DNA from: Candidatus Binatia bacterium
GTDB taxonomy: Bacteria; Desulfobacterota; Binatia; HRBIN30
DNA length: 64,000 nucleotides
Assembly: GCA_038245295.1 (NCBI GenBank)
Contig: JBBRSP010000003.1
Span: 332,354 to 396,353, forward strand
Direction: 5' to 3'
Numbering within the stretch: the stretch's first letter is position 1; each line of letters begins with the position of its first letter. This document shows positions 30,890 to 62,210 of the stretch, one piece after another. Below the pieces are notes generated by a model. That model was not told the origin of the DNA. It saw nothing but the letters and a program-made list of their open reading frames with translations, and ran no database searches. The position numbers and the translations under genes were made by a program.

Positions 30890-31107
30890 GAGACTGTCGA
30901 TAAACTGAAATGAAGCTACGTCATCCCGGCGAAAGCGACTGTCGATAAACTCGGATGCTATCCCGTCATCCCGGCGAAAGAGTGTGTCGATTTACTCGGA
31001 AACCATATTCAAAACCGAGCAGACCTATCCATCATACCGGCTTTCGCCGGTATGACGGGGGTGTCTGCGTTCTTTGAAACGATGAATCAGCGAAAATCGA
31101 CAGTCTC
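30890..31107. mobile_element. GAGAC-ended MITE with nested copies, 4-bp TSD GGCC
   Basis: GGCC|GAGACTGTCGAT...ATCGACAGTCTC|GGCC; further ends at 30935 and 30980 each directly after CCGGCGAAA. Confidence 0.85.
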
Positions 31108-31349
31108 GGCCCGGGGGAACGAGGTGACGGTCCGTGGGGTGCCCGTGGCTGCTGGCCGACCGCCAGACAACAAGCATTGTTGCGTGCCGTGTTGCTCCCC
31201 GGCGACGTCGTGCGCCGACGCCACGGCCACGGCGCTTTGTTGGGCTTCGCCTCTGCGTTGGCGACAACCTGGGAATGCGCCAGCCTTGGCGCCGCGATGG
31301 TGCAGATTCCGCGCCGGCTCGTCCGGCGGCTCGCACACACGGGGGCGGC

Positions 31350-31645
31350 GTGAAGATTCTGCATTGGACAGAGTTGTTCTGGCCGCATATCGGCGGCGTC
31401 GAGACATTTACGGCGCAGCTGCTGAAGCGGCAGCAGCAGGTTGGCCACGAGGTGAGCATCGTCACCTCGCACAGCGGCGTTCGGCTGCCGGATGAGGATC
31501 AGCACGACGGCATCCCGAGTCGGCGGTTTCCCTTCAACGCGATTCTCGCCGATTGCGATCTGCCGCGAATCGCCGTCGTGCGCGGTAAGGTAGCGGCGCT
31601 CAAGAATCGCCTCACGCCCGATGTGATTCACGTGCACAGTAGCCC
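31350..31645 (+). pseudogene. Glycosyltransferase family 4 N-terminal fragment
   Basis: MKILHWTELFWPHIGGVET...GHEVSIVT...PDVIHVH followed by unrelated sequence. Confidence 0.7.
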
Positions 31646-32333
31646 CGTTGCTCGCCGCTGTCGGCGGCTGGAGCGCCATTGCCATGGCTGGGTGGCGTGC
31701 CGCAAGTCCACGTCGACGTCGTTTCCTTCCTCTTACGGTTGCATCCCTCTTTCTCGTTGCCTCGACGCGCGGAGCAACGGGACAGGGTGCCGCACCCGAT
31801 CGACTTCCGGAGGCTTCACTGCGGGGAGCCCATCCGCCGGCAACGCCGCCTGCCGTGATGGATCGTCTTCCTGATCGGATGCTACGCAGTGCGTTCGCGA
31901 CCCCGACTGCCTCGCCGCCCGCGCCTACCATTGTTCCGCCGTTTGTGAAGGTTGGCCTCCGCAACGATCGATCGACGGGTGTGGCGTCCCCTATCGTCTA
32001 CGTCGGGTTGACGTCGGATGGGACATCCTTCTCACTCGGCGAAGGCGGAGGGTTGATCGACCGAACGGGCGAAAAGACGACTATGGCGCCGAACAGCTGT
32101 TGCTGTTGCGCTACGCCTCAACGCGGTGGGAACTGGCCTTCGTGTGGAAGAACGGTACGGAGTCGACCATTGGGCCGATGGATCATCAGACCTGGGCGCA
32201 ATTCAAATCCGCGATGGCGCAGTATTTCCCCGGTGGTCTTGTCCCGTTGGTCGAAGTGGATCGGTGAATCGAGGCGGTAGTCGAGGCCGAGGTTGACCGT
32301 CACGTACGCCTGAGGGTATTTCGGTCGGCACCA

Positions 32334-33602
32334 ATGACAGAGCAAGGCACGGCAGGGGAAGCGGTGCGGTCGACGGCAAAGCCGCGGCTGTTTGATGGAT
32401 TGAAGGTTCTCGAATTCGGCGGCGGTGCCGCCGGGCCGCTGGGGACGCGTTACTTCGCCGATCAGGGCGCGACGGTGATTCGTGTCGAGTCGAAACAGCG
32501 CCCCGACTTCATTCGTTTGTTGCGCTACACGCCCGGCGACCCGGCCGGATTGGATGGCAGCCACATGTTCGCCATGGTGAACATCAACAAGCTCGGCATC
32601 GCGCTCAACATGAGTCACCCGAAGGCCATCGGCCTGGCGCGGCGCCTGGTCGATTGGTGTGATGTGTTGGCTGAAAACTTCGCCCCGAAGGCGATGGCGA
32701 AGTGGAGTCTCGATTACGCCACTCTGAGCCAGAGCAAACCCGATCTGGTGATGATCAGTACATGTCTGAACGGACAGACGGGGCCGGATCGTAACTATCC
32801 GGGCTTCGGTGGGCAGGGCTCGGCGATCAGCGGCTTCAATCACCTGACCGGCTGGCCCGACCTCGAGCCGCTCGGTCCCTACGGAACCATCACCGACTCC
32901 TTGTCGCCACGCTACGTGGCGTTGCTCGTCGCTTCGGCGCTCCTGCATCGTCGGCGCACCGGGCACGGGCAGTATATCGACCTCTCCCAGGTCGAAGGCG
33001 GCGTCGTCTGCCTCAGTGAAAACCTGCTGACCTACACGGCAACCGGCGAGTTGCTGGAACGCATCGGCAACCGCTCACGTCATGCCGCTCCACACGGGGT
33101 GTTTCGTTGCGCCGCCAAGGGCGACGACGATGATCGATGGATCGCAATTTCCATCCAGAGCGACGAGCAGTGGTTTGCTTTGCGGCGCGCCATGGGGGAT
33201 CCGGCGTGGGCGACCAAGCCGGATTGGTCGTCGACGGCCGGCCGTCTGGCGCAGGTCGATCAGATCGAGGCCGCGGTCGGCGAGTGGACTCGCACGAAGA
33301 CTGCCGAAGAGCTGATGCGCAAACTGCAGGCCGCCGGTGTCGAAGCCGGTCTGGTCAACAACTTCGAAGACCTGCTCAACGACCCACAGTTGCGGCATCG
33401 CAACCACTACCGCGAGGTGACGCATCCGGTGATCGGCAAACATCTCTGTGAGACCAACGGCATGCGGTTCTCCGCGACGCCCGATGCCGTGACACGGCCG
33501 GCGCCACGGCTCGGCGAACACACATCGGAGGTGTTCCAGAACATCTTGGGTCTGAGCGAAGCGGAGTATGCCGAGCTGAACGCCGAGGGCGTATTTCAAT
33601 GA
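32334..33602 (+). CDS. CoA transferase family III (CaiB/BaiF)
   Basis: GLKVLEF, AGP, GATVIRVES, NK..IALN, ENF.P, GQTGP, APRLGEHT. Confidence 0.95.
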   Translation: MTEQGTAGEAVRSTAKPRLFDGLKVLEFGGGAAGPLGTRYFADQGATVIRVESKQRPDFIRLLRYTPGDPAGLDGSHMFAMVNINKLGIALNMSHPKAIGLARRLVDWCDVLAENFAPKAMAKWSLDYATLSQSKPDLVMISTCLNGQTGPDRNYPGFGGQGSAISGFNHLTGWPDLEPLGPYGTITDSLSPRYVALLVASALLHRRRTGHGQYIDLSQVEGGVVCLSENLLTYTATGELLERIGNRSRHAAPHGVFRCAAKGDDDDRWIAISIQSDEQWFALRRAMGDPAWATKPDWSSTAGRLAQVDQIEAAVGEWTRTKTAEELMRKLQAAGVEAGLVNNFEDLLNDPQLRHRNHYREVTHPVIGKHLCETNGMRFSATPDAVTRPAPRLGEHTSEVFQNILGLSEAEYAELNAEGVFQ

Positions 33603-34228
33603 GCCCGCTGGAGCCGGTTGCCTTCGATGTTGGTCGTGCCGCGTTGTGCATCGTCGAGATGCAGAACGATATCGTGCACGAATCGAACATCGGCAAACGT
33701 GGCATCGGTGGGGTGCTCGCGGCGCAGGTGCAGAAGCGCGGCGTCGTCGGATGTTTGCAGGCGGTGCTGGCGGCAGCGCGCCAGCGCCGCGTTCCCGTGC
33801 TGTACATCAACTTCGCCTTGAAGCCGGGCTTTCCAAAGCCCAACACGAAACTGCACAACCGCTCGCGCAGTCAGCCGACCCTGATCGAGGGAACCTGGGG
33901 TGTGCAGGTGCACGAGGGCCTGACGCCACAACCGAGCGACTTTGTTCTCGAGCGTACCGTCGGCATCGACGGTTCGTATGGCACGCAGCTCTATCCGGTA
34001 CTGCGATCGCTGCAACGCAACGTCATGATCATGAGTGGCGTGTCGACCAATCTCGCGGTCGAGGGCGTGGTGCGCGCCTCGGTCAACCGCGGCTTCGATG
34101 TTGTCGTGATGGAAGATTGCTGCGCCAGCTATCCCGACGAGTGGCATCGCTTCTCGATCGACAACATTCTGCCTCTGATTGCCACGGTCACCGACAGCGT
34201 GGCAATCCTGGAGCGCCTTCGTTCCTGA
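33599..34228 (+). CDS. Isochorismatase-family cysteine hydrolase
   Basis: ALCIVEMQND, GTWG, GVSTNLAVE..R...RGF.V.V.EDCC; ATGA overlap with the upstream gene. Confidence 0.85.
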   Translation: MSPLEPVAFDVGRAALCIVEMQNDIVHESNIGKRGIGGVLAAQVQKRGVVGCLQAVLAAARQRRVPVLYINFALKPGFPKPNTKLHNRSRSQPTLIEGTWGVQVHEGLTPQPSDFVLERTVGIDGSYGTQLYPVLRSLQRNVMIMSGVSTNLAVEGVVRASVNRGFDVVVMEDCCASYPDEWHRFSIDNILPLIATVTDSVAILERLRS

Positions 34229-34237
34229 GTGCTCTGC

Positions 34238-36661
34238 CTATTCAGCCACGACGCTCCCGCGCTGACGCGGCAGTTGGCGCGACGACGTGTCGCTGCCGCC
34301 CTCGATGTAGAGCACGGGCTGGCCGGGAGCGAGCGCGGTTGCGGAGGCAAGGGCAACGCGCAGGTTGCCTTGGGCGTCGTGATGATAGGCCACTAGGGCG
34401 CCCGGCGCGCCGGGGCCGCGGCGAACCCGTAGCTTGCCGACCAGGCTCGCATCTGTCGGGAGAACGACTTCGAGCGAGTGCGTTGCGGGGGCGTCGGCGT
34501 CCAAGGTGAGCGGCAGCCGCCAGTGGCCGGAGCGCGAATGGCGTGCCGTCGCGAAGTGGGCTGCAGCAAGGCTGCGGCGAGCCGCACCGCCACCGCCCGC
34601 GGGTGGGGTCCAATTGCCGTTGACGTCGCCGAACAGGATGCCGAGGAAATCCTGATTCTGGGCTGCCGGTTGTCCGCCCGGAGTCAGCGCCACGAGCGGG
34701 CTGTAGCTGATGCTGCCGGGTTGGCAGGGCAGGGTGGTGGCGGAGAAAGACGTGATGCCCTGATTGCTGACCGCCGCCGGTACGGGCAGGAACGCCCAGG
34801 ACGAATTGCAGCGGCTCGCGGCGGTGATGGGCAACTCGGTGATGAGGTTGACGCGATACTGTAAGATGAGCGACGCGTCGATGCTCGAGATACCGCCACT
34901 ACCGTTGACGTCGGCGGCAATCAGTTGCGCCGGTGCCAAGGTCGTCAGGCTCACCGCCGCTTGCAGCACCAACACGGCATCAAGCGAGCTGATCGCGGCG
35001 GCTGCGTTTGAATCCCTCAAGCCCGGGGCAACCGCCCATGTATCGCTCGCGAGGCCGGCGAAAGCGTACAGGCCGGAGGCCGATGTCGTCGTGTTCGCTG
35101 TCCCGGCACCGCTGAGCGCCAGCGCCACGTTCGGCACCGGAACGGCGTTGGCAAAGAAGTAGATGTGGCCACTAATGCCGTCGGCCGGCGTCGGCTCCGA
35201 CGTGGCCGTGACAGTGGGGGTCGAGGTGGGGGTCTTTGTTGCTACCGGCGTCGGGCTGAGGGTCGGGGTGTTCGTATTGGTTGGTGTGTTGGTGAGCGTA
35301 GACGTAACGGTCGGTGTCGATGTGAGCGAGGCGGTCCCGGTAGGGGTCGCCGTTCGCGTTGCGGTTCCGGTGCGAGTTTGGGTTGGCGTTTGAGTGCCCG
35401 TGCGTGTTGGCGTCGAGGTGCTTGTCGGCGCGATCGTCGGCGTGTAGGTGGGCCCGACGAACGGGTAGATGAACTCCATACCGCTGATGTCGTCCGAGCG
35501 AATGCTGGCACAGCGTTGCGGGCTCTCGGAGCTGAAGTGCGCCGAGGCATACATCGTCGCGGTTGGATCGGCGGAGTGGCCGAAGCCGATGGTGTGGCCG
35601 ATCTCGTGTGTCAGCAGCTCTCCGAGACTGCATTGGTTCCATGGCGAGCAAGTGCTCAGACCGTTCTGGATCACCACCTTGGCTTCGGTGATCGCCGTGA
35701 AGGATTGGCCGTTTACCACCTTGGTCGGCGACGACGTGCTGCAGTAGCCGCCCTGACCGATGACGCCGGGACAACCAGCGCCGGCGATGTCGTTGTACGG
35801 ATCATTGAACAGTATGCGGTTGATGCCCTGACAGCCGGCGAAGAGCGGCAAGGGAAGGCTTAGCGCCCCACCATTCTGGAGGATCAGTGATGCTGTCGGA
35901 ACATTGGTCCAGGCACCCATGGCATCCACGACCGCTGCCCACGAGGTCGTCGCCCCGAGGGCGGTGTCGCCGGCCGGGTCAAGGAAATAGGAAACCGGCG
36001 TGTTGGTGTCCGCCTGGTGCCAGCGCGACGGGGTCGAGGGTGCCAGGAAAGTAAACGGTGACATGAACTCGTCCAGCTGAACCGAGCGCTGGGTTTGCAC
36101 CGGCAGATGTCGTGTGCGTCGATGCGCCAGGCGTTGCAGCCGGCGTAGCAAGCGGTCGAGCGGAATTGTCTCGACCTCGGGCTCGTAGAATTTCCCACTC
36201 GTCGGATCCACGAATGTCGTTTCGCGTAGGGCCCGTCGGGCCACCGTGTTACCGGCAGAGTCGGTCAGCAGGAAGTATTGGCCGAGGCCGGCCTGCGTGG
36301 TCTCGAGGCGGCCGTCATCGGTGAGCCGCGCGAAGACCAGCACCCGATCGCCAACGTGATACTCTGGCATTCCGAAGAGAACCTCGGTCACGGTTCCATC
36401 CGTCCCGCCGGGCTGCTGCAGTTCCACCTGTGGGCTATCCAGGGTACCAAGCAGCACCCGCTCAGGATCGAGGGTCACCCGCGTGATGAGGCGCTGCGTG
36501 CCGGGGAGACGACCCGAATCGACCTTGGTTACGGTGGCGATGAGCACCAGGTCGGATTGCGACGCCATCCGGGTATCGGAGATCGGGATCATCGTTGTGG
36601 CGTGTGCGAGGGCGGGTACGACGAACACCAGGACTGTTGCCAGACGTGCTGAAAAACTCAT
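34238..36661 (-). CDS. Secreted matrixin-family (metzincin) metalloprotease with Thr/Pro linker, CnaB-like and dockerin-type domains
   Basis: [12 protein letters not shown] + ATMY Met-turn; [28 protein letters not shown]. Confidence 0.85.
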
Positions 36662-36886
36662 TCTGCCTGCAAGTATTCCTGCAAACCGGTGCCTTGCCCA
36701 GCGGAAAGTGCGGGCCGCGACTTCTCGCGTTTATTGGACGTCGTACGGAGAGTCTGCGAAGCACGAATCGACGATGGAACACCTGCGGCGATCAACCGAC
36801 GCTCAGCCTGCGGAGTCCGCCAATGCGAATTGCCGTGCCAAGCCCACGCACCCGGAACCCTCCACTTGCGTCCCCCCTTGGCTCCC

Positions 36887-39040
36887 TCACTGAACTCCAG
36901 GGACGCTAGTGAAGATACACGCCCCATCCGGTCCGGTGCAGAAGTTCTCGACCCGTCCGTCGGTTCGCAAGAAGGCATCGATCTGCGCCTGCGTCTCGGC
37001 GAGTTTACGCACCGCCCCGTGAACTCCGTTCTCGAAGGCAGGCGGCGTGTTTGTCAGGGGATTAGCGGTGCCGCCAACATTGTACGCGACAAACGCCGAG
37101 CCATCGAAAGGTGCGGCGATCTCCGGAACGCCGAACACGGGATAGACGGTCGGGGCCACAGCCGGGATGCCAAGGCTGCGTACCTGGATGCCGGCGGCGA
37201 TGGGTGACACCTGTGAGTCGTTGACGCCAATCTGCAGGAGAACCTTTTTGAGCGGATTACCCGGGAACGGGTTGCTGACAATGTGGTGCATGTACCCGTT
37301 CGGCTCGCCGCGATCCCAGAGCTGCTGGATCAACGGGAAGATCAGGACCCGATTGAGCTCGTCGGGATAAGCCTGGTTGGCAGCGAAGCTGAACGGGTTG
37401 AAGTCGATGCTGCGCTGCAGGAGTGTACTGTAGTTGGCGCCGACGACGCCGAGCACGCCGCGCTTGATGTCTGGCGACAACGCAACGACAGGGCCGCCTT
37501 CGACGCCGCCCTGGCTGTTGCCGTAATAGAATACTTCCTGCGTGTTGAGGACACCGTGCCCGTTCACCTGGAAGGCCGCGTGTGAGTTGAAACCGTTGGC
37601 CGAGTTCATGAGGCGGCCGAGGAAGATGAAGTTCAGGAACGCCTGCTGCAGGCGATCCGGCAGCTGGCGGAAGTTGCTGAAGTCGCCGATGAGGCGCAGC
37701 GTGTTGGTGACGTCGCCTTCCGACAAGCCGATGAAGTAGGTGCCGGCCGCCACGAAGTTGTAGCGATTGCTGAGCTGCTGCAGGTGGCCGGAGTTGACTT
37801 CGCTGGGGCTGCCGAGAAGGCCGTGACCGTAGACCATGGGACGAGCCGGCTGCGGGTCTGCACCTTCCAAAGCGACGCGCGGGATGTTGGCGATGAAGGT
37901 CGCCTCCATGGTGCCGTTCTGTACCGGCAGGCCGTTGGCGTCGAGGTTGTAGGTCGCCGGCGGTGTCGTCTTGGTCATGAAGTTCGGCACGGTGAACGTG
38001 CCGGTCACGCGGCGGGCGATGTTTTCGTTTACGTTGTCTTCTACCTGAGTGACGGTGAACGGCGGTGCCCCCGGACCGTTGGCGGCGATCGCTTGTTCAC
38101 GGATCGACAACATGCGCCCGGTGATCGCTTCATCGCTGGCCGTGACGAAATCCCAGGCGATGACCAGGTCGTTGCGCGTCACGTTGGCATTCCCCAGACG
38201 GGTGAAGATGTCTTCGAAGTGGCCGCGGCGAGCATTGATGGCCTGCACCGGCGTGTTGAGCTGGTCGCGGAGAATCTGGAAGGCGCGGCTCGGCTGAATC
38301 GAAGCGCCGGCGTCGTTCTTCAGATGGCGGATCGCCACGATGTAGCGATGCGCATTCTTCAAACGAATGCCGGGCCGAATGATGAACGCTCGTGTGGCCA
38401 CTTCCATCGCCTGCGCATCGAGCTCGGTGAAGTGGATGATATGCTCGCCGGTTTCGGCATCGATGAGGATGGTTGGGCTATCGGCATCGAGGGAGCGCTG
38501 GAAGTTGGTGACGCTGGCCGTCGCGGAAGCGGTTGTGTCGACGCCGGTCGGGAAGAGGGCGACAATCATCGAGCCCGGGCTGAAGCCGTCGAGCGTATTC
38601 CACTCGACCGGGTTGATGTGTACGCCACGCACATTGGCCGGCATCGATTCGCGCACGTAGTTCATCTTGTAGCCGGTTGGCGTCGACGCATCGGTCTTGA
38701 GGAAGTACGACGAGGGGTAGGGCAGCAGGCAGTTGCCGGTGTTGAGGAACTCACAGGGGACGGTGGCCGAGTCGAGGGCGCAGAGCGGCTCGGCGGCGGC
38801 GACGATGGGGCTCTCACAACCTGGGATCGCCGTCCATGTCGGCGTGGCAGACGGCTGCGGCGTGCGTGTCAGGGTCTGGGTGCTGGTGGCGGTGGTCGTT
38901 GCGGTCGACGTCGCCGTGATCGTAGCCGTAGCGGCGGCCGGCACGGATGCGGCATCGTCATCACCGCAGCCGGCAAGCGTCAACGCGAGCAAGCCACAAC
39001 ACACCCAAGCGGCCAAGCCGCGATACGTAGTCTGCTTCAT
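36887..39040 (-). CDS. Lipoprotein, putative extracellular alpha/beta hydrolase
   Basis: Lipobox LAGC, Thr-rich linker, LDGFS, YGHGLLG, nucleophile elbow YYGNSQGG. Confidence 0.75.
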   Translation of the reverse strand: MKQTTYRGLAAWVCCGLLALTLAGCGDDDAASVPAAATATITATSTATTTATSTQTLTRTPQPSATPTWTAIPGCESPIVAAAEPLCALDSATVPCEFLNTGNCLLPYPSSYFLKTDASTPTGYKMNYVRESMPANVRGVHINPVEWNTLDGFSPGSMIVALFPTGVDTTASATASVTNFQRSLDADSPTILIDAETGEHIIHFTELDAQAMEVATRAFIIRPGIRLKNAHRYIVAIRHLKNDAGASIQPSRAFQILRDQLNTPVQAINARRGHFEDIFTRLGNANVTRNDLVIAWDFVTASDEAITGRMLSIREQAIAANGPGAPPFTVTQVEDNVNENIARRVTGTFTVPNFMTKTTPPATYNLDANGLPVQNGTMEATFIANIPRVALEGADPQPARPMVYGHGLLGSPSEVNSGHLQQLSNRYNFVAAGTYFIGLSEGDVTNTLRLIGDFSNFRQLPDRLQQAFLNFIFLGRLMNSANGFNSHAAFQVNGHGVLNTQEVFYYGNSQGGVEGGPVVALSPDIKRGVLGVVGANYSTLLQRSIDFNPFSFAANQAYPDELNRVLIFPLIQQLWDRGEPNGYMHHIVSNPFPGNPLKKVLLQIGVNDSQVSPIAAGIQVRSLGIPAVAPTVYPVFGVPEIAAPFDGSAFVAYNVGGTANPLTNTPPAFENGVHGAVRKLAETQAQIDAFLRTDGRVENFCTGPDGACIFTSVPGVQ

Positions 39041-39198
39041 GGTTCGGGCCTCCTCAGTTGATTGGACGCGGCTCAGTATCACGAACGCCAAGCCGCTGGC
39101 CATTGTCGCGTCACTGTCCGGTCGAGGTTGGCGGCTGTGCGGGATGGTTCGCCGATCAATCGGGAATCCCGCATGCCCGCCATTTACGGCGCAGGCGA

Positions 39199-40122
39199 CT
39201 AGCTGCGGGTCACCGAGGATACGCCCGACGGATGGGCTTCGTGTGTAACCTTGGTGTGGGGTGGCACCGACTCGACGATCCACATGTTGCCGCCGATCAC
39301 CGAGCCCTCACCGATGACCGTGTCGCCGCCGAGAATCGTGGCGCCGGAGTAGATCGTCACGTTGTTCTCGAGCGTCGGATGGCGCTTGCGATTACGCACC
39401 AAGGCGCCATCGCGATCACGCGGCAGGCTGATCGCCCCCAACGTTACGCCTTGGTAGAGCTTGACGTTGTCGCCGATCACGGCGGTCTCACCGATGACCA
39501 CGGCCGTACCGTGGTCGATGAAGAAGCTCTTGCCGATCTTGGCGCCGGGGTGAATGTCGATGCCCGTTTTTCCGTGGGCGTGTTCGGCGAGAATGCGCGG
39601 CACCATCGGGACCTGCTCCTCGAACAACTCATGGGCGATGCGATAGGTCGTAATCGCTTGAATGGTCGGATAGCTGAAGATGATTTCTTCGACGCTCTTG
39701 GCCGCTGGGTCGCCCTCGAAGGCGGCGCGCACGTCGAGGTTCAGCAGCTCCCGGAGATGTGGCAACTTATTGAAGATGCGTAACACGACCTGCTCGGCCC
39801 ACGCCGGGTCGGGCGGCACCGTGCCGCGCGAGCATTGGCATTCCCAGTTCTGGGCCCTGGCAATTTGCTCGACGAGGATCTCATAGGCCGGGTGCAGGTG
39901 CTCGCTGAGAGCATAACGCAGGTTGCCCTTGTTCAGCGGGCGCCTGCTGTAGAAGCCCATGTAGATGACCGGCTTCAGGTGATTGAGCGCTTCGATTACG
40001 GCGCGTCGGTTCGGCAGAGCGGCGCTTTCGAGGCTGTCGATCTCGTGGCCGCTGTTGTAGCTGTCGGCGACCTGGTCGATGACGCCCTCGAGATCGGCGT
40101 AGCGGCTAAGGGTGGTGCTCAT
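39199..40122 (-). CDS. cysE: Serine O-acetyltransferase
   Basis: GDPAA, TGIDIHPGA, FFIDHGT, YQGVTLG, KRHPT. Confidence 0.95.
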   Translation of the reverse strand: MSTTLSRYADLEGVIDQVADSYNSGHEIDSLESAALPNRRAVIEALNHLKPVIYMGFYSRRPLNKGNLRYALSEHLHPAYEILVEQIARAQNWECQCSRGTVPPDPAWAEQVVLRIFNKLPHLRELLNLDVRAAFEGDPAAKSVEEIIFSYPTIQAITTYRIAHELFEEQVPMVPRILAEHAHGKTGIDIHPGAKIGKSFFIDHGTAVVIGETAVIGDNVKLYQGVTLGAISLPRDRDGALVRNRKRHPTLENNVTIYSGATILGGDTVIGEGSVIGGNMWIVESVPPHTKVTHEAHPSGVSSVTRS

Positions 40123-40213
40123 CGGTTCGCTCCCTTGTGTTGGGCCTCGGTGGGGTGAGGCGGCGACGGCAGGGACAGCAAGGCATGCATGGACGGCAAC
40201 GAATCCGGATGCA

Positions 40214-40990: not shown

Positions 40991-41084
40991 GCGTTCCTCC
41001 TTTCGTGATCCATGCCGCAGTGCCTACGTAGGCACAAGATGAGCCCCTTCGGGAAGGAGGAATGCTCTTTCCCGCTTTCACGCT

Positions 41085-43622: not shown

Positions 43623-43632
43623 GCGCGGGCTT

Positions 43633-45889: not shown

Positions 45890-46134
45890 TTCTATGAGGC
45901 TGGCGGAACCCGGCTAAAGAGACTGTCGTAAAACCAAAGTAGAGCAACGTCATCCCGGTGAAAACCGGGATCTCCCAGTGCTGGAAGCCTCGAGATCTGG
46001 CGAGATACCGGCTTTCGCCGGTATGACGGATAGGTCTGCTCGGTTTTAAATATGGTTTTCGAGTAAATCGACACACTCTAAACGCGGAACGCGCAAACCT
46101 ACCGAGTTGCAAACACGCCCTCGTGGCTCAGATG
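45886..46134 (+). repeat. Duplicated tRNA leader plus first 18 nt of tRNA-Arg (att-like site), interrupted by a MITE
   Basis: 46088-46134 matches 48528-48574 at 45/47 nt; CTAGTTC(T)TATGAGGCTGGC shared upstream. Confidence 0.85.
45919..46078. mobile_element. 160-bp GAGAC-ended MITE, 4-bp TSD TAAA
   Basis: TAAA|GAGACTGTCGTAAAA...GTAAATCGACACACTC|TAAA; one internal inverted REP pair; absent from the paralogous 48487 copy. Confidence 0.9.
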
Positions 46135-48556: not shown

Positions 48557-48630
48557 GCCCTCGTAGCTCAGATGGATAGAGCACAGGATTCCTAATCCTG
48601 GGGCCGCGCGTTCGAATCGCGCCGAGGGCA
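48557..48630 (+). tRNA. tRNA-Arg(CCT)
   Basis: Acceptor GCCCTCG/CGAGGGC, D-arm GCTC/GAGC, anticodon arm CAGGA-TTCCTAA-TCCTG, TTCGAAT T-loop; CCA not encoded. Confidence 0.97.
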
Positions 48631-48640
48631 AGCCTTTTCT

Positions 48641-50439: not shown

Positions 50440-50440
50440 G

Positions 50441-51301: not shown

Positions 51302-51332
51302 ACCACAATCTGGGTCTCGCGACCCTGTCGAC

Positions 51333-52193: not shown

Positions 52194-52204
52194 AGGGAAA
52201 CCCT

Positions 52205-52234
52205 TTGCAATTCCTTGGCTCGGCCCAATATCAT
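52205..52234 (+). promoter_or_regulatory. Putative sigma70 promoter for ligD (likely leaderless)
   Basis: TTGCAA-18nt-TATCAT ending 7 nt before the ATG at 52242; no SD. Confidence 0.45.
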
Positions 52235-52241
52235 CGTTTTG

Positions 52242-54776: not shown

Positions 54777-54963
54777 CAATCCGTGAAGAGTTCGTTCGGG
54801 CTCTTCCCTTCTGATCAAATGCCAAGTAGAAGCGACGCAACCGCCTGGAAAACACTCCGTCCCGCCGCGCGAGCGGTGCATGGACAGAGTACGGTTGGAA
54901 GACTCCAAGAGGATGTTGCCCAACGCGACGGCGAAGCTAGACGAAGCAAAAGGAGACTATCGG

Positions 54964-55434
54964 ATGTCGAGCGACGATCGGGGCGCTGCAGGCGGTGCCC
55001 CGCGTTATGCCGCCGGAGACGGATCATTCGGCTCAGGACGGCAGGGGGGCGGCAGCAACGGGGGCGGCGGCGGGCAGGGCCGCAATAACAACAAGAAGCG
55101 AAGACGGCAGCGCGCTCAACGCGGCAAGCGGCCGCGCGGTGGCGGCGGCGGTGGTGGTGGTGGTGGGCACTCGAGTTCACCGCACGGTGAGATGGCCAAC
55201 AAGGAGAGGATCTTTCAGGACATCGAAGGACTCTTGCGTCAGATCCGTGAGGCCGCCGACGAAGAAAATGCGTTTTCCGAAGCGCAGGTGGGGGATTACG
55301 TGCAGGCGGTCACCGGCCTGCAGAAGGCCTTCGAATCCGAAGCGACGATGGTTTCGGATCGTGCCTTCAGCGAATATCAGCGCGTGCGCGATAAGCTGCA
55401 GAACGCGCTGCGCAATCACAATCCAAATTTCTGA
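54964..55434 (+). CDS. Hypothetical protein with Gly/Arg-rich disordered N-terminus and helical C-terminal domain
   Basis: AAAGGAG RBS; GGGSNGGGGGQGRNNNKKRRRQRAQRGKRPRGGGG. Confidence 0.7.
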   Translation: MSSDDRGAAGGAPRYAAGDGSFGSGRQGGGSNGGGGGQGRNNNKKRRRQRAQRGKRPRGGGGGGGGGGHSSSPHGEMANKERIFQDIEGLLRQIREAADEENAFSEAQVGDYVQAVTGLQKAFESEATMVSDRAFSEYQRVRDKLQNALRNHNPNF

Positions 55435-55477
55435 AATAGCGGCCGTCTGAACGACGGTGCGACAGGGCTGCAAAAAT

Positions 55478-55508
55478 CCGGCGAGAGTGTTTCCGACACT
55501 CTCGCCGG
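55478..55508. terminator. Perfect 13-bp hairpin between convergent genes
   Basis: CCGGCGAGAGTGT-TTCCG-ACACTCTCGCCGG with an A-run 5' (U-tract on the minus strand). Confidence 0.7.
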
Positions 55509-55524
55509 CGACCCAGGCTTTCGC

Positions 55525-55893
55525 CTACTCGCCGAGATCACTGGCCGAGATCAAACTCCCATCGTTCAATTCGACGGCGCGACATACGCGCAACGAGAGA
55601 TCCGCCATCGTCCATGCGCGGCCGTCAAGGAACTGGGCAGCGTCTACGGAGAAAATCGGCCTCGTACGTCCCGAAGCCGCGGCGAACCGCTCGGCTACCT
55701 GTTCGGCGACCGCGAGAGCCGCGCCCCGACGTGCGGGCACAGGATTCACCTGGAATAGGCGAGGAACCGCTTCATACGGACGCTCCGACTTTGGCCAGCG
55801 GAAATGCTGCAGCGTCTCTTCCATTCCGTCACGTTCCATCAGAATCACCTCGCTCTGGCGCCAACCGGACAGTCCAAACTGGCCTATGCCCAT
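55525..55893 (-). CDS. Hypothetical protein (start uncertain)
   Basis: Open frame ending just before the terminator; GAGGTG RBS before an internal ATG. Confidence 0.5.
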   Translation of the reverse strand: MGIGQFGLSGWRQSEVILMERDGMEETLQHFRWPKSERPYEAVPRLFQVNPVPARRGAALAVAEQVAERFAAASGRTRPIFSVDAAQFLDGRAWTMADLSLRVCRAVELNDGSLISASDLGE

Positions 55894-56050
55894 GAACCCA
55901 GGGGCTTGGCCCGTGTAACGCAAGCCACATGCCAGACGGTTGGGGGATACCAGGGTGTTCCAAGTCGCTCTTGAACAAGGGGTGACGGCGCGGGGAAGCG
56001 TCGACAATTTGCCGCGACGCCAATTTTGGCCCGCGTGCGCGGCGAGCCGC

Positions 56051-57415
56051 CTACTTGTGGGCGATGCCGTATTTGTCGAGGCGATAGCGCAACGCGCCGC
56101 GGCCGATCCCGAGGATACGCGCCGCTTCGCTCAAGTTGTTCCCGGCCCGCTGCAGGGCTTTGAGAAGCATGCTGCGCTCCGCCTCGGTCAGATCGAGATC
56201 CGTGCCGACGGCAACGGCCGGCGGGGCGGTGGGGCGCTCGACGCTCCCGAGATACTGCGGAAAGTCGTTTGCGGCGATGAGCTGCCCGCGGCTGACGATG
56301 ACCGCGCGCTCGATGGCGTTGGCGAGCTCGCGAACGTTGCCCTCCCAGGGCGCCGAGTGCAGATAGTCCGTCGCTTCGTTCGAGAATCCGGGAACGTCCT
56401 TGCCGACCTGTTGCGCCAGGTTGGCGAGAATGCCCTGGGCCAATGGCAAGATATCCTCGCGGCGTTCGCGCAGCGGCGGTACATGGATGGGAAAGACGCT
56501 GAGGCGGAAGAACAGGTCTTCGCGAAACAACCGATCGCGGGCGCGCTGCCGCAGGTCGACATTGGTCGCGGCAATCAAGCGCGCGGTGAAGCTTGTTGGT
56601 TTCGTGCCGCCGAGCGGAATGACTTCACGTGTTTCGATGACGCGTAGCAACTTGGCTTGGACCGAGATCGGCACGTCGCCGATTTCATCAAGCAGCAGTG
56701 TGCCACCGTTGGCTTGGTGCAACAAACCCTCCTTGGCTTGCTGCGCCCCGGAGAACGCACCGCGTTCGTATCCGAAGAGCTCGCTTTCCATGAGCGCTTC
56801 CGGGATGGCGGCGGCGTTTATGCCGAAAAAAGGCTTGGCACTGCGCTCGCTATTGTAGTGGATCGCCCGCGCCAACACTTCCTTGCCGACGCCGCTTTCG
56901 CCGGTGATCAATACCGTAACCTCACGTTGCGCCGCTTCCCTGGCGAGGTGGATGACTTCGGCCATGGCGCGCGAGCGAGAGATGATATTGGAAAAGTCGT
57001 AACGCCCGCCGACGGCGGCGCGCAGCCGGCGGTTCTCCTGCACCAGCGAGGTCAGGTGAACAGCCTTCTCCAGCTGCGCCAGGAGCACTTCCGAACGTAC
57101 CGGCTTGGTCAGGAAGTCGGTGGCTCCCGCCTTCATCGCCTCGACGGCGCGTTCAATGGACCCGTGAGCCGTCACGACGATGGCCTGGAAGGACGGATCT
57201 CGCTCGCGCAGCAGTCGCAGGAGAGCGAGACCGTCCATCACCGGCATCGAGAGATCGAGCAAGCCGATCGCCATCTGATCCTCGCTGTGAGCCTGCAGCG
57301 CCTCGGCGCCGGAGGCCACGCAACGCGGGATATAGCCGGCCCGTTCGAGGGTGATCTCAAGGATCCGACGGTTATCTGGATTGTCGTCGACGACGAGTAC
57401 GCAGGGTTTTTCCAT
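56051..57415 (-). CDS. Sigma54-dependent response regulator (NtrC/AtoC family)
   Basis: Receiver, GESGVGKE, ESELFG..GAFSGA, LLDEIG, FREDLFFRL, GNVREL, Fis HTH. Confidence 0.95.
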   Translation of the reverse strand: MEKPCVLVVDDNPDNRRILEITLERAGYIPRCVASGAEALQAHSEDQMAIGLLDLSMPVMDGLALLRLLRERDPSFQAIVVTAHGSIERAVEAMKAGATDFLTKPVRSEVLLAQLEKAVHLTSLVQENRRLRAAVGGRYDFSNIISRSRAMAEVIHLAREAAQREVTVLITGESGVGKEVLARAIHYNSERSAKPFFGINAAAIPEALMESELFGYERGAFSGAQQAKEGLLHQANGGTLLLDEIGDVPISVQAKLLRVIETREVIPLGGTKPTSFTARLIAATNVDLRQRARDRLFREDLFFRLSVFPIHVPPLRERREDILPLAQGILANLAQQVGKDVPGFSNEATDYLHSAPWEGNVRELANAIERAVIVSRGQLIAANDFPQYLGSVERPTAPPAVAVGTDLDLTEAERSMLLKALQRAGNNLSEAARILGIGRGALRYRLDKYGIAHK

Positions 57416-57472
57416 GGCGCGGCGGCCGGATAGTATCAGATGTCGGCTCGCCTTCAACCGACTGTGCTGAGT

Positions 57473-57914
57473 GGTGGTGGGTCCGTTTGCTTCCCAAGGC
57501 TGGGCAACGTCATCCCGGCGAAGGAGACCGTCGTAAAGCCAAAGTGGAGCAACGTCATCCCGGTGAAAACCGGGATCTCCCCTGCTGGAAGCCTCGAAAG
57601 CTGGCGAGATACCGGCTTTCGCCGGTATGATGGAGGTGTTTGCGCAGTTTCGAACGATGAATCAGGGACACACTCGAAAGCCGGGATCTCCTCGAGCGGA
57701 AGGCCAAAAATGTCGGGGAGATTCCGGCTTTCGCCGGTATGACGGGGGTGTTCGCGCTGCTTCAAACGATGAATCAGAGAAAATCGACAGTCTCCTTCGC
57801 CGGAATGATGGAGATGTTTGAATGCTTTCACACGTGCGATCAGAGACAATCGACAGTCTCTTTCGCCGCAATGACGAATCCTCGCTGCCTCGGTTTTCAG
57901 ATAGAACCACTACC
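57473..57914. mobile_element. 442-bp non-autonomous element with IS1-like ends and 8-bp TSD, containing nested GAGAC-ended units and REP hairpins
   Basis: TGCTGAGT|GGTGGTGGGTCCGTTTG...CAGATAGAACCACTACC|TGCTGAGT. Confidence 0.9.
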
Positions 57915-57959
57915 TGCTGAGTTGCGACGCGCTACCCGCCGGGGGTATGTGCCAACGCG

Positions 57960-58163
57960 ATGGAAGCGATTCGGCGCGGCTGCGTGTGGTTGGGGGTCGC
58001 CAGCCTCATCTCTTTCCTCCTGTCGTTGCTGGTACTCACGCTGTTCGTCGAAGCCCCGGCGGTCCTGCGTTGGTTTGCGGCGTCCGGCGCCCTGTGTTTC
58101 CTCGCCTTCGGCGTTGCGGCGCTGACAACATTGCTCGAGCAGCGAGGCAGCAACAGTGATTAG
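57960..58163 (+). CDS. Small two-helix membrane protein
   Basis: Two hydrophobic segments; overlaps the start of the permease. Confidence 0.5.
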   Translation: MEAIRRGCVWLGVASLISFLLSLLVLTLFVEAPAVLRWFAASGALCFLAFGVAALTTLLEQRGSNSD

Positions 58164-59073
58164 GGCGCTGGCGCGCCGCGCCGCGGCCAGTGTCATCGTC
58201 CTCATCGGTGTGGCGACTCTGACGTTCATCGTGGCATTCGTCGTACCGAGCGATCCGGCGCGCGCCGTCGCCGGGCCGAAAGCCGACGCCGCCACAGTCG
58301 CCCAGATTCGCCACGAGCTCGGGCTCGATCGCTCGCTGCCGATCCAATACTTGTCCTACCTCGGACGGCTGGCTCGCGGCGACCTCGGGCGTTCGTACAT
58401 CACACGTGAGCCGGTGGTGCGCGCCATCGCCCAGCGCCTGCCCGCAACCGCGGCTTTGGCGGTGACGAGCATCGCGCTGGCCGCTCTGTTGGGGGCTATC
58501 GCCGGTGTCGGTATCGCGGCGCTGAACGACCAGCGCGCCGACACGGTGCTGTTGCTGCTGTCGATCTTCGGCCTTTCGCTGCCGATCTTCTGGATTGGCA
58601 TTCTGCTGTTGCAGGTGTTCGCCTATCGCTGGCGCCTCCTGCCGCTCGGCGGCTACGGGCTGGCCAATGCCATCCTTCCCGTGACGGCGCTTACCGTACA
58701 CCTTGGTTCATCGTATGCGCGCCTTGCCCATTCCAGCCTGCGTCAGGTGATGGAACAAGACTATGTGCGGACGGCGTTCGCGAAAGGCCTGCCGGCGTGG
58801 CGCGTCTATAGTATCCACGCCGCCCGCAACGGGATGTTGCCGCTGTTGACCCTCATCGGTATCGACTTCGCCGGGCTCATGGGTGGTGTCGTGCTCACCG
58901 AAACCGTTTTCAACTGGCCGGGGCTTGGGCGTCTCGCCGTCGACGCCGTATTCAATCAGGACATTCCTCTGCTGATGGGCACCGTGCTGTTTGCCGCCAT
59001 TTTGGTGGTTGCCAGCAATGCCTGTGTCGACGTGTTGTACGCCTTGGCCGACCCGCGCATTCGACAGGAATGA
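58156..59073 (+). CDS. Peptide/nickel ABC permease (OppB/DppB-like)
   Basis: DPAR, LGLD..L..QY, GDLG.S, DYVRTA.AKGL, ETVFNWPGLG. Confidence 0.95.
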   Translation: MIRALARRAAASVIVLIGVATLTFIVAFVVPSDPARAVAGPKADAATVAQIRHELGLDRSLPIQYLSYLGRLARGDLGRSYITREPVVRAIAQRLPATAALAVTSIALAALLGAIAGVGIAALNDQRADTVLLLLSIFGLSLPIFWIGILLLQVFAYRWRLLPLGGYGLANAILPVTALTVHLGSSYARLAHSSLRQVMEQDYVRTAFAKGLPAWRVYSIHAARNGMLPLLTLIGIDFAGLMGGVVLTETVFNWPGLGRLAVDAVFNQDIPLLMGTVLFAAILVVASNACVDVLYALADPRIRQE

Positions 59074-59900
59074 GCGCCATGAACGACGTCGGCAACCCAT
59101 TTTTGAAAACCGGTCTGATCCTGGTGCTGCTCTTGGCGGCCATCGCCATCCTGGCGCCGTGGATCGCGCCGTACGACGCGGTGGCGCCGGTTGCCGACAG
59201 CTTTGGCGAGCCCTGGCCACCGTCGGCGCAATATCTCTGTGGTACCGACGAGCTCGGACGCGACGTCCTCAGTCGACTGATCTTCGGAACCCAGATCTCG
59301 CTGCTAGTCGCCGTCGTGGCGACGATTCTGACGCTGGTCATCGGTGTCGGCGTCGGCGCGGTTGCCGGCTATCTGGGCGGCCGTGTCGACACGGCCCTGA
59401 TGCGCGCCACCGATGTCGTTCTGGCTTTCCCGGGGCTGCTGCTGGCGATCGCCCTGGCGGCGGTATTGCGGCCGGGCCTGACCTCGATGTTCACGGTGAT
59501 CGCGCTGGTGAGTTGGACCGGCGTGGCGCGTTCGGTGCGCAGCGAAATTCTTTCGCTGCGCGAGCGCGACTACGTCCTTGCCAGCCGAGCTCTGGGCGCA
59601 ACCGACTGGCGCGTCGTCAGTCGCCATCTCATTCCGAACACGATGCCGACGATTTTGACCTTGGCGGCTCTGAGCACATGCGCGACATTGCTGCTCGACG
59701 CCGGCCTGAGTTTTCTCGGTCTTGGTGTTCCCGTACCGACGCCGAGTTGGGGCCGCATGCTGAGTGACAGCCAGAGCTACTATCGCGTCGCTCCGTGGTT
59801 GATGATCTTTCCCGGCCTGGCGATCGTCACCGCGGTGCTGTCCTTCAATCTCCTCGGCTACGGGTTGCTGCGCCTATCCGAGCAGAAGCAGCGTCGATGA
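59070..59900 (+). CDS. Peptide/nickel ABC permease (OppC/DppC-like)
   Basis: GTDELGRDVLSRL, RHLIPN, LSFLGLG..P.PSWG.ML. Confidence 0.95.
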   Translation: MSAMNDVGNPFLKTGLILVLLLAAIAILAPWIAPYDAVAPVADSFGEPWPPSAQYLCGTDELGRDVLSRLIFGTQISLLVAVVATILTLVIGVGVGAVAGYLGGRVDTALMRATDVVLAFPGLLLAIALAAVLRPGLTSMFTVIALVSWTGVARSVRSEILSLRERDYVLASRALGATDWRVVSRHLIPNTMPTILTLAALSTCATLLLDAGLSFLGLGVPVPTPSWGRMLSDSQSYYRVAPWLMIFPGLAIVTAVLSFNLLGYGLLRLSEQKQRR

Positions 59901-61474
59901 ACGGGGAGAGGCTGTTCATCGGATTGCTCCTCGTGCTGTCGATGGGCTGCCATGGCCCAACGGCGCAGGGCAGTGACGACCGCCGATTCTTGCGGGTTGC
60001 CAGCCGTGAGGACGTGCCGAGCCTCGATCCGGCGCGTGGGTACGACACGGTGTCGTGGCAATTTGAGGACATGCTGTTCTCGACCTTGGTCGATTACGAC
60101 TACGACTCGAAACTGGTGAGGGAGCTGGCCCTGAGTTGGACGGCCAGCCCGGATGGTCTCACCTACACCTTCCAATTGCGCCCGGACGTACACTTCAGCA
60201 ACGGTCGTTTGATGACGGCCGCCGACGTTCGCTACGCCATCGAACGCGTGCTGACGCCGGCAAGCAAATCGCCGGGAGCCGAGTTCTACCGCGGCATCGA
60301 AGGCGCGGAGAGTTGTGCCACGGGGCCGTGTCGTGTCGATGGCATCGAAGTGGTCGCCGATGATCAGGTGCGCTTCCATCTGCGCGACAGCGATCCGCTG
60401 TTCTTGCACAAACTCGCCATGCCGTTTGCGGCGCCGGTGCCGCGTGAAGTGGTTGAGCAGTGGGGTGAAGACTTCGGTCGCCACCCGGTGGGAACAGGGC
60501 CGTTCCAGCTCCAGGATTGGCGCGCCGGCCAACGACTCGTCGTCGTTCGCAACCCGCTCTTCTATGACAAGACGCGGCCGCACATCGCAGGGGTCGTGCA
60601 GAGTGTTGGTGTCAACCGCGACCTGGAATGGATGCGCTACGATATCGGCGAGCTCGATCTGAGTGCCATCCCACCCCCCGAGTATCCTTTGGTGGTGCGG
60701 CAGCCGCGTTATCAACCGCTCTTGCGACAGGTCACCACGATGCGGACCCAATACCTGGGGCTCAATTGCAATCGCCCGCCGTTTGATGACGTACGTATCC
60801 GCCGGGCCCTGAACCTGGCCATCGACAAGGATAAACTGCTGCGGCTGGTGAACCGTCGCGGTGTCGCGGCGCGCGGCATCCTGCCGCCGACCATGCCCGG
60901 TTACAACGCCAATCTGCCTGGCTACGAGTACTCGCCGACCAAGGCGCGTGAGATGCTGCGTGAAACCGGATGGCACCAGACCGAGGCTATCGAGTTGTGG
61001 CTGCGCAACGACGAAACGACCGTGCGCTTGGCGCAGGCCCTGCAACAAGATCTGGCGGCGATTGGGTTCGTGGTGCAGCTCAAGCCGGTGGCCTGGGGAC
61101 CATTTCTGGACGCCGTGAAGTCGAACGACCTGGTGCCAATGTTCTTGCTCGGTTGGGAAGCGGACTTCCCCGATCCGAGCAATTTTCTCGACGTATTATT
61201 CCACTCACGCTTCATTGGGACGAACAACAACACGAACTATCGCAGTGCCGAGGTGGATGAGTGGCTCGACCGCGCCGCCCGCATGACCGACGCCAACGAA
61301 CGTCTCGAGCTGCTCGGTCGTGTCGAAGAACGAATTATTGCCGATGCGCCATGGGTGCCGTTGTACCACCCGGTCGATGTCGAGATCATTTCGACGCGCG
61401 TCCACGACTTTCGGCTGCATCCACTGCGCCCGGCACGATTTGACGAACTATCGTTGAGCGATACAGGTTCGTAG
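59897..61474 (+). CDS. ABC substrate-binding lipoprotein (OppA/DppA family 5)
   Basis: Lipobox SMGC, LA.SW..S.DG.TYTF.LR.DV.F, PVGTGPF, GW.ADFPDP. Confidence 0.95.
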   Translation: MNGERLFIGLLLVLSMGCHGPTAQGSDDRRFLRVASREDVPSLDPARGYDTVSWQFEDMLFSTLVDYDYDSKLVRELALSWTASPDGLTYTFQLRPDVHFSNGRLMTAADVRYAIERVLTPASKSPGAEFYRGIEGAESCATGPCRVDGIEVVADDQVRFHLRDSDPLFLHKLAMPFAAPVPREVVEQWGEDFGRHPVGTGPFQLQDWRAGQRLVVVRNPLFYDKTRPHIAGVVQSVGVNRDLEWMRYDIGELDLSAIPPPEYPLVVRQPRYQPLLRQVTTMRTQYLGLNCNRPPFDDVRIRRALNLAIDKDKLLRLVNRRGVAARGILPPTMPGYNANLPGYEYSPTKAREMLRETGWHQTEAIELWLRNDETTVRLAQALQQDLAAIGFVVQLKPVAWGPFLDAVKSNDLVPMFLLGWEADFPDPSNFLDVLFHSRFIGTNNNTNYRSAEVDEWLDRAARMTDANERLELLGRVEERIIADAPWVPLYHPVDVEIISTRVHDFRLHPLRPARFDELSLSDTGS

Positions 61475-61487
61475 CCGCGTGTGACCA

Positions 61488-61630
61488 AAGAAAAACACCC
61501 CCGGCCTGCATCGGGGGGCTACCGATGCAGACCGGGGGCTGTGCTGAAAGGAGGGGGGCGCGCCGATGATCTTGCAGGACCATCGGCGCAGCAGCGGGCG
61601 GAGGGGGGAGTCCGCTAATGCTACTGCTGG
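61488..61630 (-). ncRNA. Candidate small RNA with C-rich anti-SD-like motifs and intrinsic terminator
   Basis: Minus strand: CTCCCCCCTCC, hairpin, CCCCCCTCCTTT, long hairpin followed by TGTTTTTCTTT; no convincing CDS upstream. Confidence 0.55.
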
Positions 61631-61853
61631 GTATCGACGCGGCGATTTGAGGTTCATTCAAGAATTTCGATCGCCTCAAAAGTTTTTCCTGAGTGGTCGG
61701 ATTGGCGCACGTCGGTGAGTCTCCTCGCCAACCCGGCTTTCGCCGCGGATCAGGCGCGGCGGCGGACTTCCACTGCGAAGCATAGATGATCAAACGAGCC
61801 CGTCGCCAACCGGCGCATGCAGCCGCCTGTTCGGCCCGAGAGCAACGCTTCAT

Positions 61854-62210
61854 CCACAGATGAACACAGCCCGGCCGTTGGCCGGAACTAACTCAGGCCA
61901 ACCCAAAAGCCCTCCCTCCGTCATTCCGGCGAAAGCCGGAATCTCCCCCTGCTGGAAGCCTCGAAAGCTGGCGAGACACCGGCTTTCGAGACTGTCGATA
62001 GACAGGGGGCACCCTTCGACGGGCTCAGGGTGAGCGGAAAAACATCTGCACGATCAACACAGCAACCGCTCAGGCTGAGCCCGTCGAAGCCGAGTTTACC
62101 GGTTTATCGACAGACCCTTTCGCCGGTATGATGGATAGATCGGCTCGGCAACACGGATGCAGACCATGGCCGTTGGCAAGCCATCTGTGTTCATCGGTGT
62201 TCATCCTTGG
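61854..62210. repeat. Three-layer nested repeat cluster
   Basis: Outer CAGATGAACACAG/ATCTGTGTTCATC arms; middle CGTCATTCCGGCGAAAGCCGG REP pair; inner MITE. Confidence 0.75.
61988..62117. mobile_element. 130-bp GAGAC-ended MITE, TSD TTTC, carrying a different REP pair
   Basis: CCGGC-TTTC|GAGACTGTCGATAGAC...GTTTATCGACAGACCC|TTTC-GCCGG; cargo CTTCGACGGGCTCAGGGTGAGCGG...CCGCTCAGGCTGAGCCCGTCGAAG. Confidence 0.85.

Follow-up and report, generated by a model that had tools for sequence, protein, structure and literature searches.

The stretch of DNA analysed here (the window; 64,000 nucleotides from a Candidatus Binatia bacterium, corresponding to C3:332354-396353 in a 6.63-Mb assembly, G000, of 129 contigs with 62.7% G+C) contains several copies of a short, non-coding element with terminal inverted repeats (TIRs), which carries repetitive extragenic palindromic (REP) sequences and is itself inserted in such sequences. 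In our assessment this is very probably a type II MITE (a miniature transposable element with inverted repeats) that derives from an insertion sequence (IS) of the IS1182 family, has a REP pair as cargo, and targets its own family in part. An initial annotation of the window had listed five loci with common ends (1-157, 30890-31107, 45919-46078, 57524-57860, and 61988-62117), and all of these are present in the sequence as written. The 4-bp target duplications that it read at three loci were confirmed as well, i.e. GGCC at 30890-31107, TAAA at 45919-46078, and TTTC at 61988-62117. Nine ends indeed adjoin a GAAA/TTTC hairpin loop or a one-nucleotide variant of it: GAAA at 157, 30935, 30980, and 57675, GAAG at 57524, CTTC at 57794, and TTTC at 57860, 61988, and 62117.

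A standard copy is 160 bp long and consists of a 29-bp short arm (types A, B, and E), a CGTC-type REP (REP1), a spacer, a second REP in inverse orientation (REP2), and a 50-bp long arm (types C, D, and Cx). An intact 160-bp copy of the B-D subfamily, flanked by TAAA, lies at 45919..46078 (+ strand), directly downstream of an open reading frame (ORF) with a GreA/GreB domain. Its REP1 starts at 45948 and has a compensated stem (CCGGT/ACCGG), its REP2 ends at 46028, and the whole copy folds as a single long single-strand hairpin (z -7.05). At 30886..31111 (+) we found an unbalanced nest at a non-REP site, with the GGCC duplication outside (30886-30889 and 31108-31111), three inward-facing ends at the left, and a single one at the right. 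It starts with a 45-bp unit (30890..30934, +) made up of a short arm of type A (29 bp), a REP head half, and the loop GAAA; in this loop sits a second 45-bp unit of a type E short arm, a REP head half, and a GAAA loop (30935..30979, +). These are followed by a copy of 128 bp (30980..31107, +) that has two long arms, D and C, and a single hybrid hairpin (31030-31057) to which its REP pair has collapsed.

The three remaining loci lie in other repeats. At the left edge, a copy with short arm B at 157 and a long arm C with degenerate tip (1..157, -) reaches 5 bases beyond the window on its left side; there, its host is a D arm, which begins 73 bases outside the window. The copy adjoins the remainder of a host mini-element with a GGTAGTGG-type TIR (158..264), composed of the duplicated loop GAAA, a REP tail, a spacer, the second REP, and an arm. 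The host mini-element at 57473..57914 belongs to the same other family (GGTAGTGG-type TIR), and the middle of its REP pair is replaced by a nest. This contains an inner copy with a B arm, a REP pair, and a shortened, degenerate right end, flanked by GAAG and GAAA (57524..57675, +); the remainder of an outer copy of A-C type, with loop, REP tail, type-A spacer, REP2, and a C arm ending at 57794 (57676..57794, +); and a 66-bp unit of loop, REP head half, and long arm Cx, which ends at 57860 (57795..57860, -). The fifth locus is a host REP pair (61919..62133) with an intact head at 61919 and the second REP split by a 130-bp element (61988..62117, +), which has the same ends and the TTTC duplication, and the cargo of which is a palindrome pair of the type found in a second MITE family. 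A terminal repeat was looked for in the conserved frame around this host REP pair and none was found. The host lies in a further repeat of CACAGATGAACAC type (61855-62199), with a 10-base word on both sides. Independent contigs from a public run, probably of the source sample, bridge the junctions at 57794 and 57860 to unique DNA with no difference (57779-60769), and also the junctions at 57524, 45919, and 46078; among the contigs listed no single piece spans 57560-57778.

The proposal that these ends sit in the hairpin that the family itself carries is clearly right for four of the nine (30935, 30980, 57675, and 57794) and not for the other five. Ends 157, 57524, and 57860 sit in REPs of the different mini-element with other terminal repeats (57473-57914 and -124..264), and 61988 and 62117 lie within a hybrid REP pair.

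Genome-wide, a strict scan detected 232 ends and a profile scan 346; removal of about 30 ends of the second family left 316, and after 3 doubtful ones were dropped, 313 ends grouped in 132 loci were retained. The 16-base end pattern gave 184 matches vs. 0 for the reversed control. Ends that face each other (103 pairs) share the 16-base consensus and span 158-163 bp in 77 cases; 96 pairs enclose CGTC REP heads, 7 another palindrome pair, and none is empty. The view that most copies carry the CGTC hairpin pair thus holds, with 61988-62117 as an exception in the window. The carried REPs show the CGTC tag, 8-bp stem, 4-base loop, short tail, and head-to-head pairing of CGTC-type REPs, judged from the description given in PMC3733652. 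An exact outer 4-bp duplication was observed at 42 of the 101 two-ended loci.

The two dominant subfamilies are B-spacerB-D, with 33 copies counted, and A-spacerA-C, with 16; arm-swapped mosaics are also present. The two consensus sequences differ at 36 of 160 positions, and the arm lengths of 29 and 50 are constant across the diverged subfamilies. Copies differ from their own consensus by 2-19 bases (A-C, n = 11) or 3-11 bases (B-D, n = 28). As no identical pairs were found among the full-length copies compared, with differences of at least 3 bases, the family has likely not been spreading for some time and looks dormant.

The ends are strongly associated with REPs, as the initial annotation had anticipated for hairpin loops throughout the genome. 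A REP head half plus four bases precedes 187 of the 316 ends and a REP tail half plus four bases 48 (0.195% and 0.194%, respectively, of random positions, n = 200,000), i.e. 235 ends in total as compared to about 0.4% of random positions, so the lack of loop enrichment that had been named as grounds for abandoning the idea was not what we observed. A CCGGC-like core only was recognised at 42 ends, and the same classifier gives 3.7% at 200,000 random positions. A first REP census (806 heads) was too loose and was superseded by a stricter one, in which 558 heads, 383 intact and 175 filled, were counted, with 26 intact-like sites in the reversed genome. These junctions suggest that the elements were likely inserted at the 4-base centre of CCGGC-N4-GCCGG palindromes, wherever such palindromes were present, by a cognate transposase that is now likely lost or not assembled.

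Nests, recognised as same-direction end pairs, occur at 52 of the 132 loci. The spacing of such ends lies within 1 base of 45, 66, 98, or 119 in 69 of 76 cases, the values that insertion into either REP of a 160-bp copy (REP1 or REP2) would give: 45 and 66 equal an arm, a half-REP, and the loop (29+16 and 50+16), and 98 and 119 are the complementary remainders. Fourteen inner copies are enclosed by family ends on both sides; 8 of these have an exact 4-bp duplication, 3 a duplication with one mismatch, and 3 none. In the balanced nest C19:66564-66873 a GAAG outer and a TTTC inner duplication are found in the order GAAG/TTTC/TTTC/GAAG. In A-arm hairpins, B ends were found 14 times, D ends 5 times, A ends 3 times, and ends of another type twice; both orientations thus occur, which is indicative of insertion as opposed to tandem duplication. 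Loci with multiple ends total about 23 kb of DNA. Many nests are lopsided, with more ends on one side, as at 30890-31107 (three left, one right). They may have formed by recombination between inner and outer copies or by slippage, or else by transposition with one outer and one inner end. The nested arrays described for the window are present in the sequence, with the correction that many loci are no simple nests and miss one outer half or have the middle of a REP pair replaced.

Analysis of the flanks pointed to two different outcomes at the target. At loci flanked by a REP head and a tail (n = 31) the loop is duplicated exactly in 21 and with one mismatch in 9, and an ordinary insertion would duplicate one loop. 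Another 39 loci are flanked by two heads, and in 21 of these the adjoining 4-mers are reverse complements (e.g. GAAA...TTTC). Empty paralogous hosts keep both REPs and a 26-bp spacer, with loops GAAA and TTTC, from which it follows that at head-head loci the element took the place of the spacer and of the two tails. Of the 14 empty pairs, 6 could be assigned to recognised hosts. Among the head-head loci with exact duplications (n = 10), 7 fall in one host family and one (61988) is actually tail-head. Slippage between stems was rejected as the origin of the reverse-complement loci since it would retain the first loop, and the joins are for this reason likely made by the transposase; a host family with GGAG/GGAG flanks does show the first loop kept, as such slippage predicts. 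We propose that in the second outcome the two ends would be joined to the two loops of a REP pair and the intervening DNA removed, by adjacent deletion, by two-site attack, or by two insertions with subsequent recombination. Full-length IS relatives of the element (see below) show the same mixture of duplicated and unduplicated flanks.

Hairpins of different stem sequence are used very unequally. Heads on the family's own arms are filled in 47 of 271 cases vs. 128 of 287 for others, the latter figure being inflated by one host family (21 of 25 filled) with a single insertion seemingly copied with its host. The lower rate for own hairpins is explained by the fact that, of the four hairpin types delivered, three are poor targets: REP1 of A and E arms (CCCGGC) is filled in 28 of 62 cases vs. 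3 of 70 for REP2 of C arms (ACCGGC), and B arms with CCGGT in 1 of 64 vs. 4 of 9 for B arms with C (p 5.5e-4, with copies that are not independent). Immunity of the B-D subfamily merely through younger age was considered and rejected, the two subfamilies being about equally diverged (2-19 and 3-11 differences). Each new B-D copy brings in two poor targets, so growth should be self-limiting; in this scheme the sole good target for nesting would be REP1 of A-C copies. The CCGGT change itself may reflect selection for escape, or else palindrome correction with drift. Thus, insertion into own-family hairpins is real, but it is neither preferred nor runaway, and the recursive growth of arrays foreseen in the initial annotation is not supported.

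We propose that target choice by the enzyme depends on the sequence of the stem, with (C/T)CCGGC as the optimum, and not on hairpin shape alone. That the transposase recognises only the shape, and that the apparent choice of sequence reflects stability, abundance, or selection after insertion, we regard as unlikely. Such recognition would account for the use of CCCTCTCCC-type palindromes by the same ends in other genomes, with both classes in one genome, and for the variable loop letters, and structure targeting is reported for IS1272 in the available portions of PMC5678879 and PMC4923244. At the same time, the pairing CCGGT/ACCGG is kept in 58 of 63 intact CCGGT heads, yet these are almost never filled, and the CCGGC-like bias persists at non-REP target sites. 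Moreover, none of the 313 family ends lies exactly at GCAGGC-N4, although 239 intact hairpins of this kind exist in the genome and are used by the second family. This second MITE family (134 bp, ends GAGGCTGTCTCAAAA, of the same end type and with a different palindrome pair as cargo) has 66 of 94 ends at the loop of GTAG-type (GCAGGC) hairpins and 3 at CCGGC; we take it to be of IS1182 type. The separate hairpin use by the two end families fits recognition of sequence. Same-direction neighbours are absent among 99 ends of the second family, and this lack of nesting fits the notion that nesting needs a self-carried target. The second family was likely active recently, given 22 full copies at 0-6 bases from the consensus, 4 identical pairs, and many copies at contig ends; an empty target hairpin for it is present in the window at 62327-62346.

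The ends led to an autonomous relative in other genomes, of the IS1182 kind that had been expected. Of 40 relatives, 21 contain matches to the 16-base end pattern; four of these have 57-81 matches each, and the control gave no more than one. A 538-amino-acid ORF located among the DUF772 loci of these relatives (L048) is bounded by ends that equal the C tip over 18 bases and the A tip over 15, and L048 and L079 share these 18 and 15 identical terminal bases with the MITE. The L048 protein has Pfam matches to DUF772, DDE_Tnp_1, and DDE_Tnp_1_6; NF033551 (IS1182 family, cut-off 270) is the best family for L081, L080, and L048, with 278, 269.6, and 245 bits, respectively. In the one comparison made, similarity to the parent IS ends after the terminal 15-18 bases, and because the interior is REP cargo and not derived from the parent IS, the element is assigned to type II MITEs. 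Scans of the collection for related transposases yielded 11 and 10 loci, and close matches to the transposase profile are restricted to 2 of 151 genomes of the class. Full-length relatives are 1725-1733 bp long and sit in CCCTCTCCC- or CCCCTCCTT-type purine/pyrimidine palindromes, with a 4-bp duplication at 6 of 8 full-length copies in one genome. At L111 a 41-bp unit composed of the same end, an arm, and a half-palindrome precedes the IS, a geometry as in the 45-bp units. At L115:183-300, one palindrome holds both a 110-bp MITE and a full-length IS, which have the same ends and are separated by 7 bases.

The transposase that was supposed to be encoded elsewhere in the genome did not turn up in this assembly. 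No parent IS was found by DUF772 (6 matches) or DDE_Tnp_1_6 (6 matches), the loci matched by either profile having ends unlike those of the MITE; DDE_Tnp_1 was not searched. Other DUF772 transposases, with different ends, are located in G000 at C18:19-1311, C10:118732-119928, C20:98689-99744, C3:194106-195533, and C95:657-1640. No ends run into a contig gap as those of a collapsed IS would; a candidate at the end of C27 was discarded, its 14-base tip being followed by an unrelated repeat common to C48 and C81. The whole 160-bp element was not found in close relatives, 9 of 40 of which gave partial matches only.

Several results count against the interpretation given above. A recognisable target is missing at 39 of 316 ends, and the counts are of non-independent events, as insertions can be copied with their host: 10 of the 16 copies of one end variant lie in the same host family in the same orientation, which points to one insertion copied with its host. 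Paralogous empty hosts had to be used for comparison because no relative offers an orthologous empty site. L048 itself scores under the NF033551 cut-off, and a search of this incomplete assembly with its protein gave 3 weak matches, the best with 29% identity; since this assembly yielded no cognate transposase, assignment of the enzyme relies on the ends only. No full-length element was found in a CGTC REP (0 of 7 checked loci contain a CGTC REP head), so the enzyme variant that acted here is postulated and not found.

CGTC REPs also reside in other mini-elements. A third family of about 154 bp, with a TIR starting GGTAGTGGGTCC (39 pattern matches, a few from other elements), carries the same CGTC REP pair; examples are the window hosts at 57473-57914 and -124..264 as well as C5:63980-64133 and C7:26074-26227. 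A fourth, with a TIR starting CAATGTCGTTAAGTT (30 matches, among them C53:11142-11404 and C2:210009-210435), likewise holds the REP pair and is located in CCCTCACCC/CCCTCTCCC repeats; it was apparently copied together with one MITE inserted inside it, and is presumably IS4-like. By carrier, the 558 REP heads divide into 294 on arms of the family studied here (23 with the end lost), 36 and 25 in the two other TIR-bounded families, 45 in a conserved frame the ends of which are not definable, and 158 without a recognised carrier. TIR-bounded mini-elements of three families thus hold 355 of 558 heads (about 64%), in agreement with the suggestion that REP spread is linked to DDE-type MITE ends. In genome G001 the same ends carry and target CGTC REPs, with nests (L103, L105, and L107), and a lopsided nest with another palindrome class was found at L063. 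IS1182-type ends were also seen around unrelated cargos at L056-L075 (G033, G037, and G038), L021 (G015), and L095-L099 (G002), where the cargo is another palindrome pair or an inverted simple repeat and the overall length mostly 130-170 bp. Varied cargos within the same ends suggest repeated capture, perhaps with a constraint on length.

This distribution might instead mean that the REP pair itself moves, as a REPIN mobilised by a HUH/RAYT-type enzyme, and has landed in several unrelated mini-elements, so that the MITE would be a mere host with little part in REP spread. The same REP pair in at least three unrelated frames, and the same ends around other palindrome pairs in this and other genomes, speak for it and also mean that the cargo was acquired several times; the genome moreover has five Y1_Tnp matches, and 158 of the heads lack a carrier. 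Nevertheless, we find this explanation improbable. There is no empty frame among the 103 facing end pairs, arm lengths of 29 and 50 were kept across diverged subfamilies as after a single capture, and the duplications flank the MITE ends and not the REP pair. In addition, all Y1_Tnp matches are at least 2.9 kb from the closest CGTC REP, though four of the five lie near contig ends.

Tandem slippage, as in the left end of IS1272L, could in principle have produced the 45-bp and 66-bp units. Many loci do have unequal numbers of ends per side, C9 has one locus with three consecutive A units, and a comparable case is described for IS1272L in the part of PMC5678879 that we could consult. Against this, an A unit is followed by an arm of another type in 21 of 24 cases and by a long arm, in reverse orientation, in 5, and balanced nests with two separate duplications (C19:66564-66873) refute slippage as a general cause. 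It is thus a very unlikely explanation for the units as a whole and may account for a minority of those that are stacked. That the nests are artefacts of a metagenome-assembled genome, as its 129 contigs and the interior stretch unbridged by any listed piece might suggest, is hardly credible, given that copies differ by at least 3 bases, that the independent assembly bridges 57779-60769 without a difference, that inner and outer duplications match in balanced nests, and that similar nests occur in other genomes (L063, L103, L105, and L107).

Beyond the MITE origin and partial self-targeting, a wider interpretation can be put forward tentatively, as possible rather than probable. CGTC REP pairs may travel as cargo of DDE mini-elements and for this reason lack a dedicated transposase, and a MITE that carries its own target may have set off a contest between subfamilies, in which B-D escaped self-insertion by the compensated stem change and piles into A-C. 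The enzyme, on this proposal, would join both ends to the loops of a REP pair in one step and so replace the spacer.

Several known elements use REPs or other hairpins. IS1397, IS621, IS1594, and ISPpu9 presumably belong to other transposase families than the one considered here, and IS1111 we take to be an IS110-family recombinase element. The former four likewise use REPs as insertion sites but are autonomous and, in what PMC3184786 provides, are not described as carrying the targeted REP. According to the available portions of PMC5678879 and PMC4923244, IS1272, an IS1182 member, targets hairpins by structure and not by sequence and replaces them without duplication; the former also presents a model pathway (c) with duplication of the loop only, and a 25-bp left-end duplication in IS1272L that gives a tandem extra left end. 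As far as these texts go, IS1272/TnSha1 resemble the window family in transposase family, ends of about 16 bp, palindromic targets, and partial target removal without duplication. IS1272, however, cuts at or in the stem of single hairpins, whereas the window family joins at the loop edge, shows both duplication and two-loop replacement, appears to depend on stem sequence, is gene-less, and carries its own target. Instead of the absence of consensus and duplication that marks IS1272-type structure-only targeting, we found a strong CCGGC-N4 consensus and frequent duplications.

QMITE2, a MITE of 150-190 bp, contains a GTAG REP that is targeted by IS1111 (PMC5896051 and PMC10969869, both as accessible). 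Here too a MITE holds a REP that serves as IS target, and truncated QMITE2 copies resemble free REPs; the REP is of GTAG type, though, and the invader is not of the MITE's own family, hence there is no self-nesting. CGTC REPs were defined in PMC3733652, the consulted sections of which describe the CGTC tag, 8-bp stem, 4-base loop, head-to-head pairs, and intergenic position, apparently no dedicated transposase, and, in two species, REP pairs enclosed by longer palindromes without an unlinked target. In contrast to the latter, the enclosing repeats in the present genome are transposon ends with duplications of their own. No paper on an IS1182-type MITE that both carries and targets CGTC REPs was found in a literature search that covered few subscription papers; a bioRxiv preprint on the insertion of IS into breaks contributes little to the comparison. 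Hairpin targeting by IS1182 members and REP-carrying MITEs are already published, and the behaviour of the element is closer to known systems than the initial annotation implied.

Other features were noted in the window and the genome. A 64-bp stretch at 21237-21300 has inward-facing GGTAGT-type ends, similar to ends at C36:10512 and C44:1519, and GTAG-type hairpin repeats without insertions, including an inverted pair, lie at 28873-28951 and 43619. The 2952-amino-acid product of the ORF at 2860-11718 (-), in which DUF11 matches 8 times and pilin-like domains are present, is likely a large surface protein. A transfer RNA gene at 48557-48630 is the sole Rfam match in the window. [quoted passage not shown]

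The element remains non-coding selfish DNA, the basic habits of which are already in print. Its bearing on REPs is wider: the MITE likely helped to spread the CGTC class of hairpin repeats, which has no known mover. In the sections of PMC3733652 at hand the movement of CGTC REPs was left open, and the location of 355 of 558 heads in mini-elements provides a concrete, testable vehicle. For the IS1182 enzymes, whose mechanism is poorly described, the genome represents a natural data set on target choice, which holds two end families with separate hairpins, a near-immune stem variant, and both loop-duplicating and spacer-replacing outcomes.

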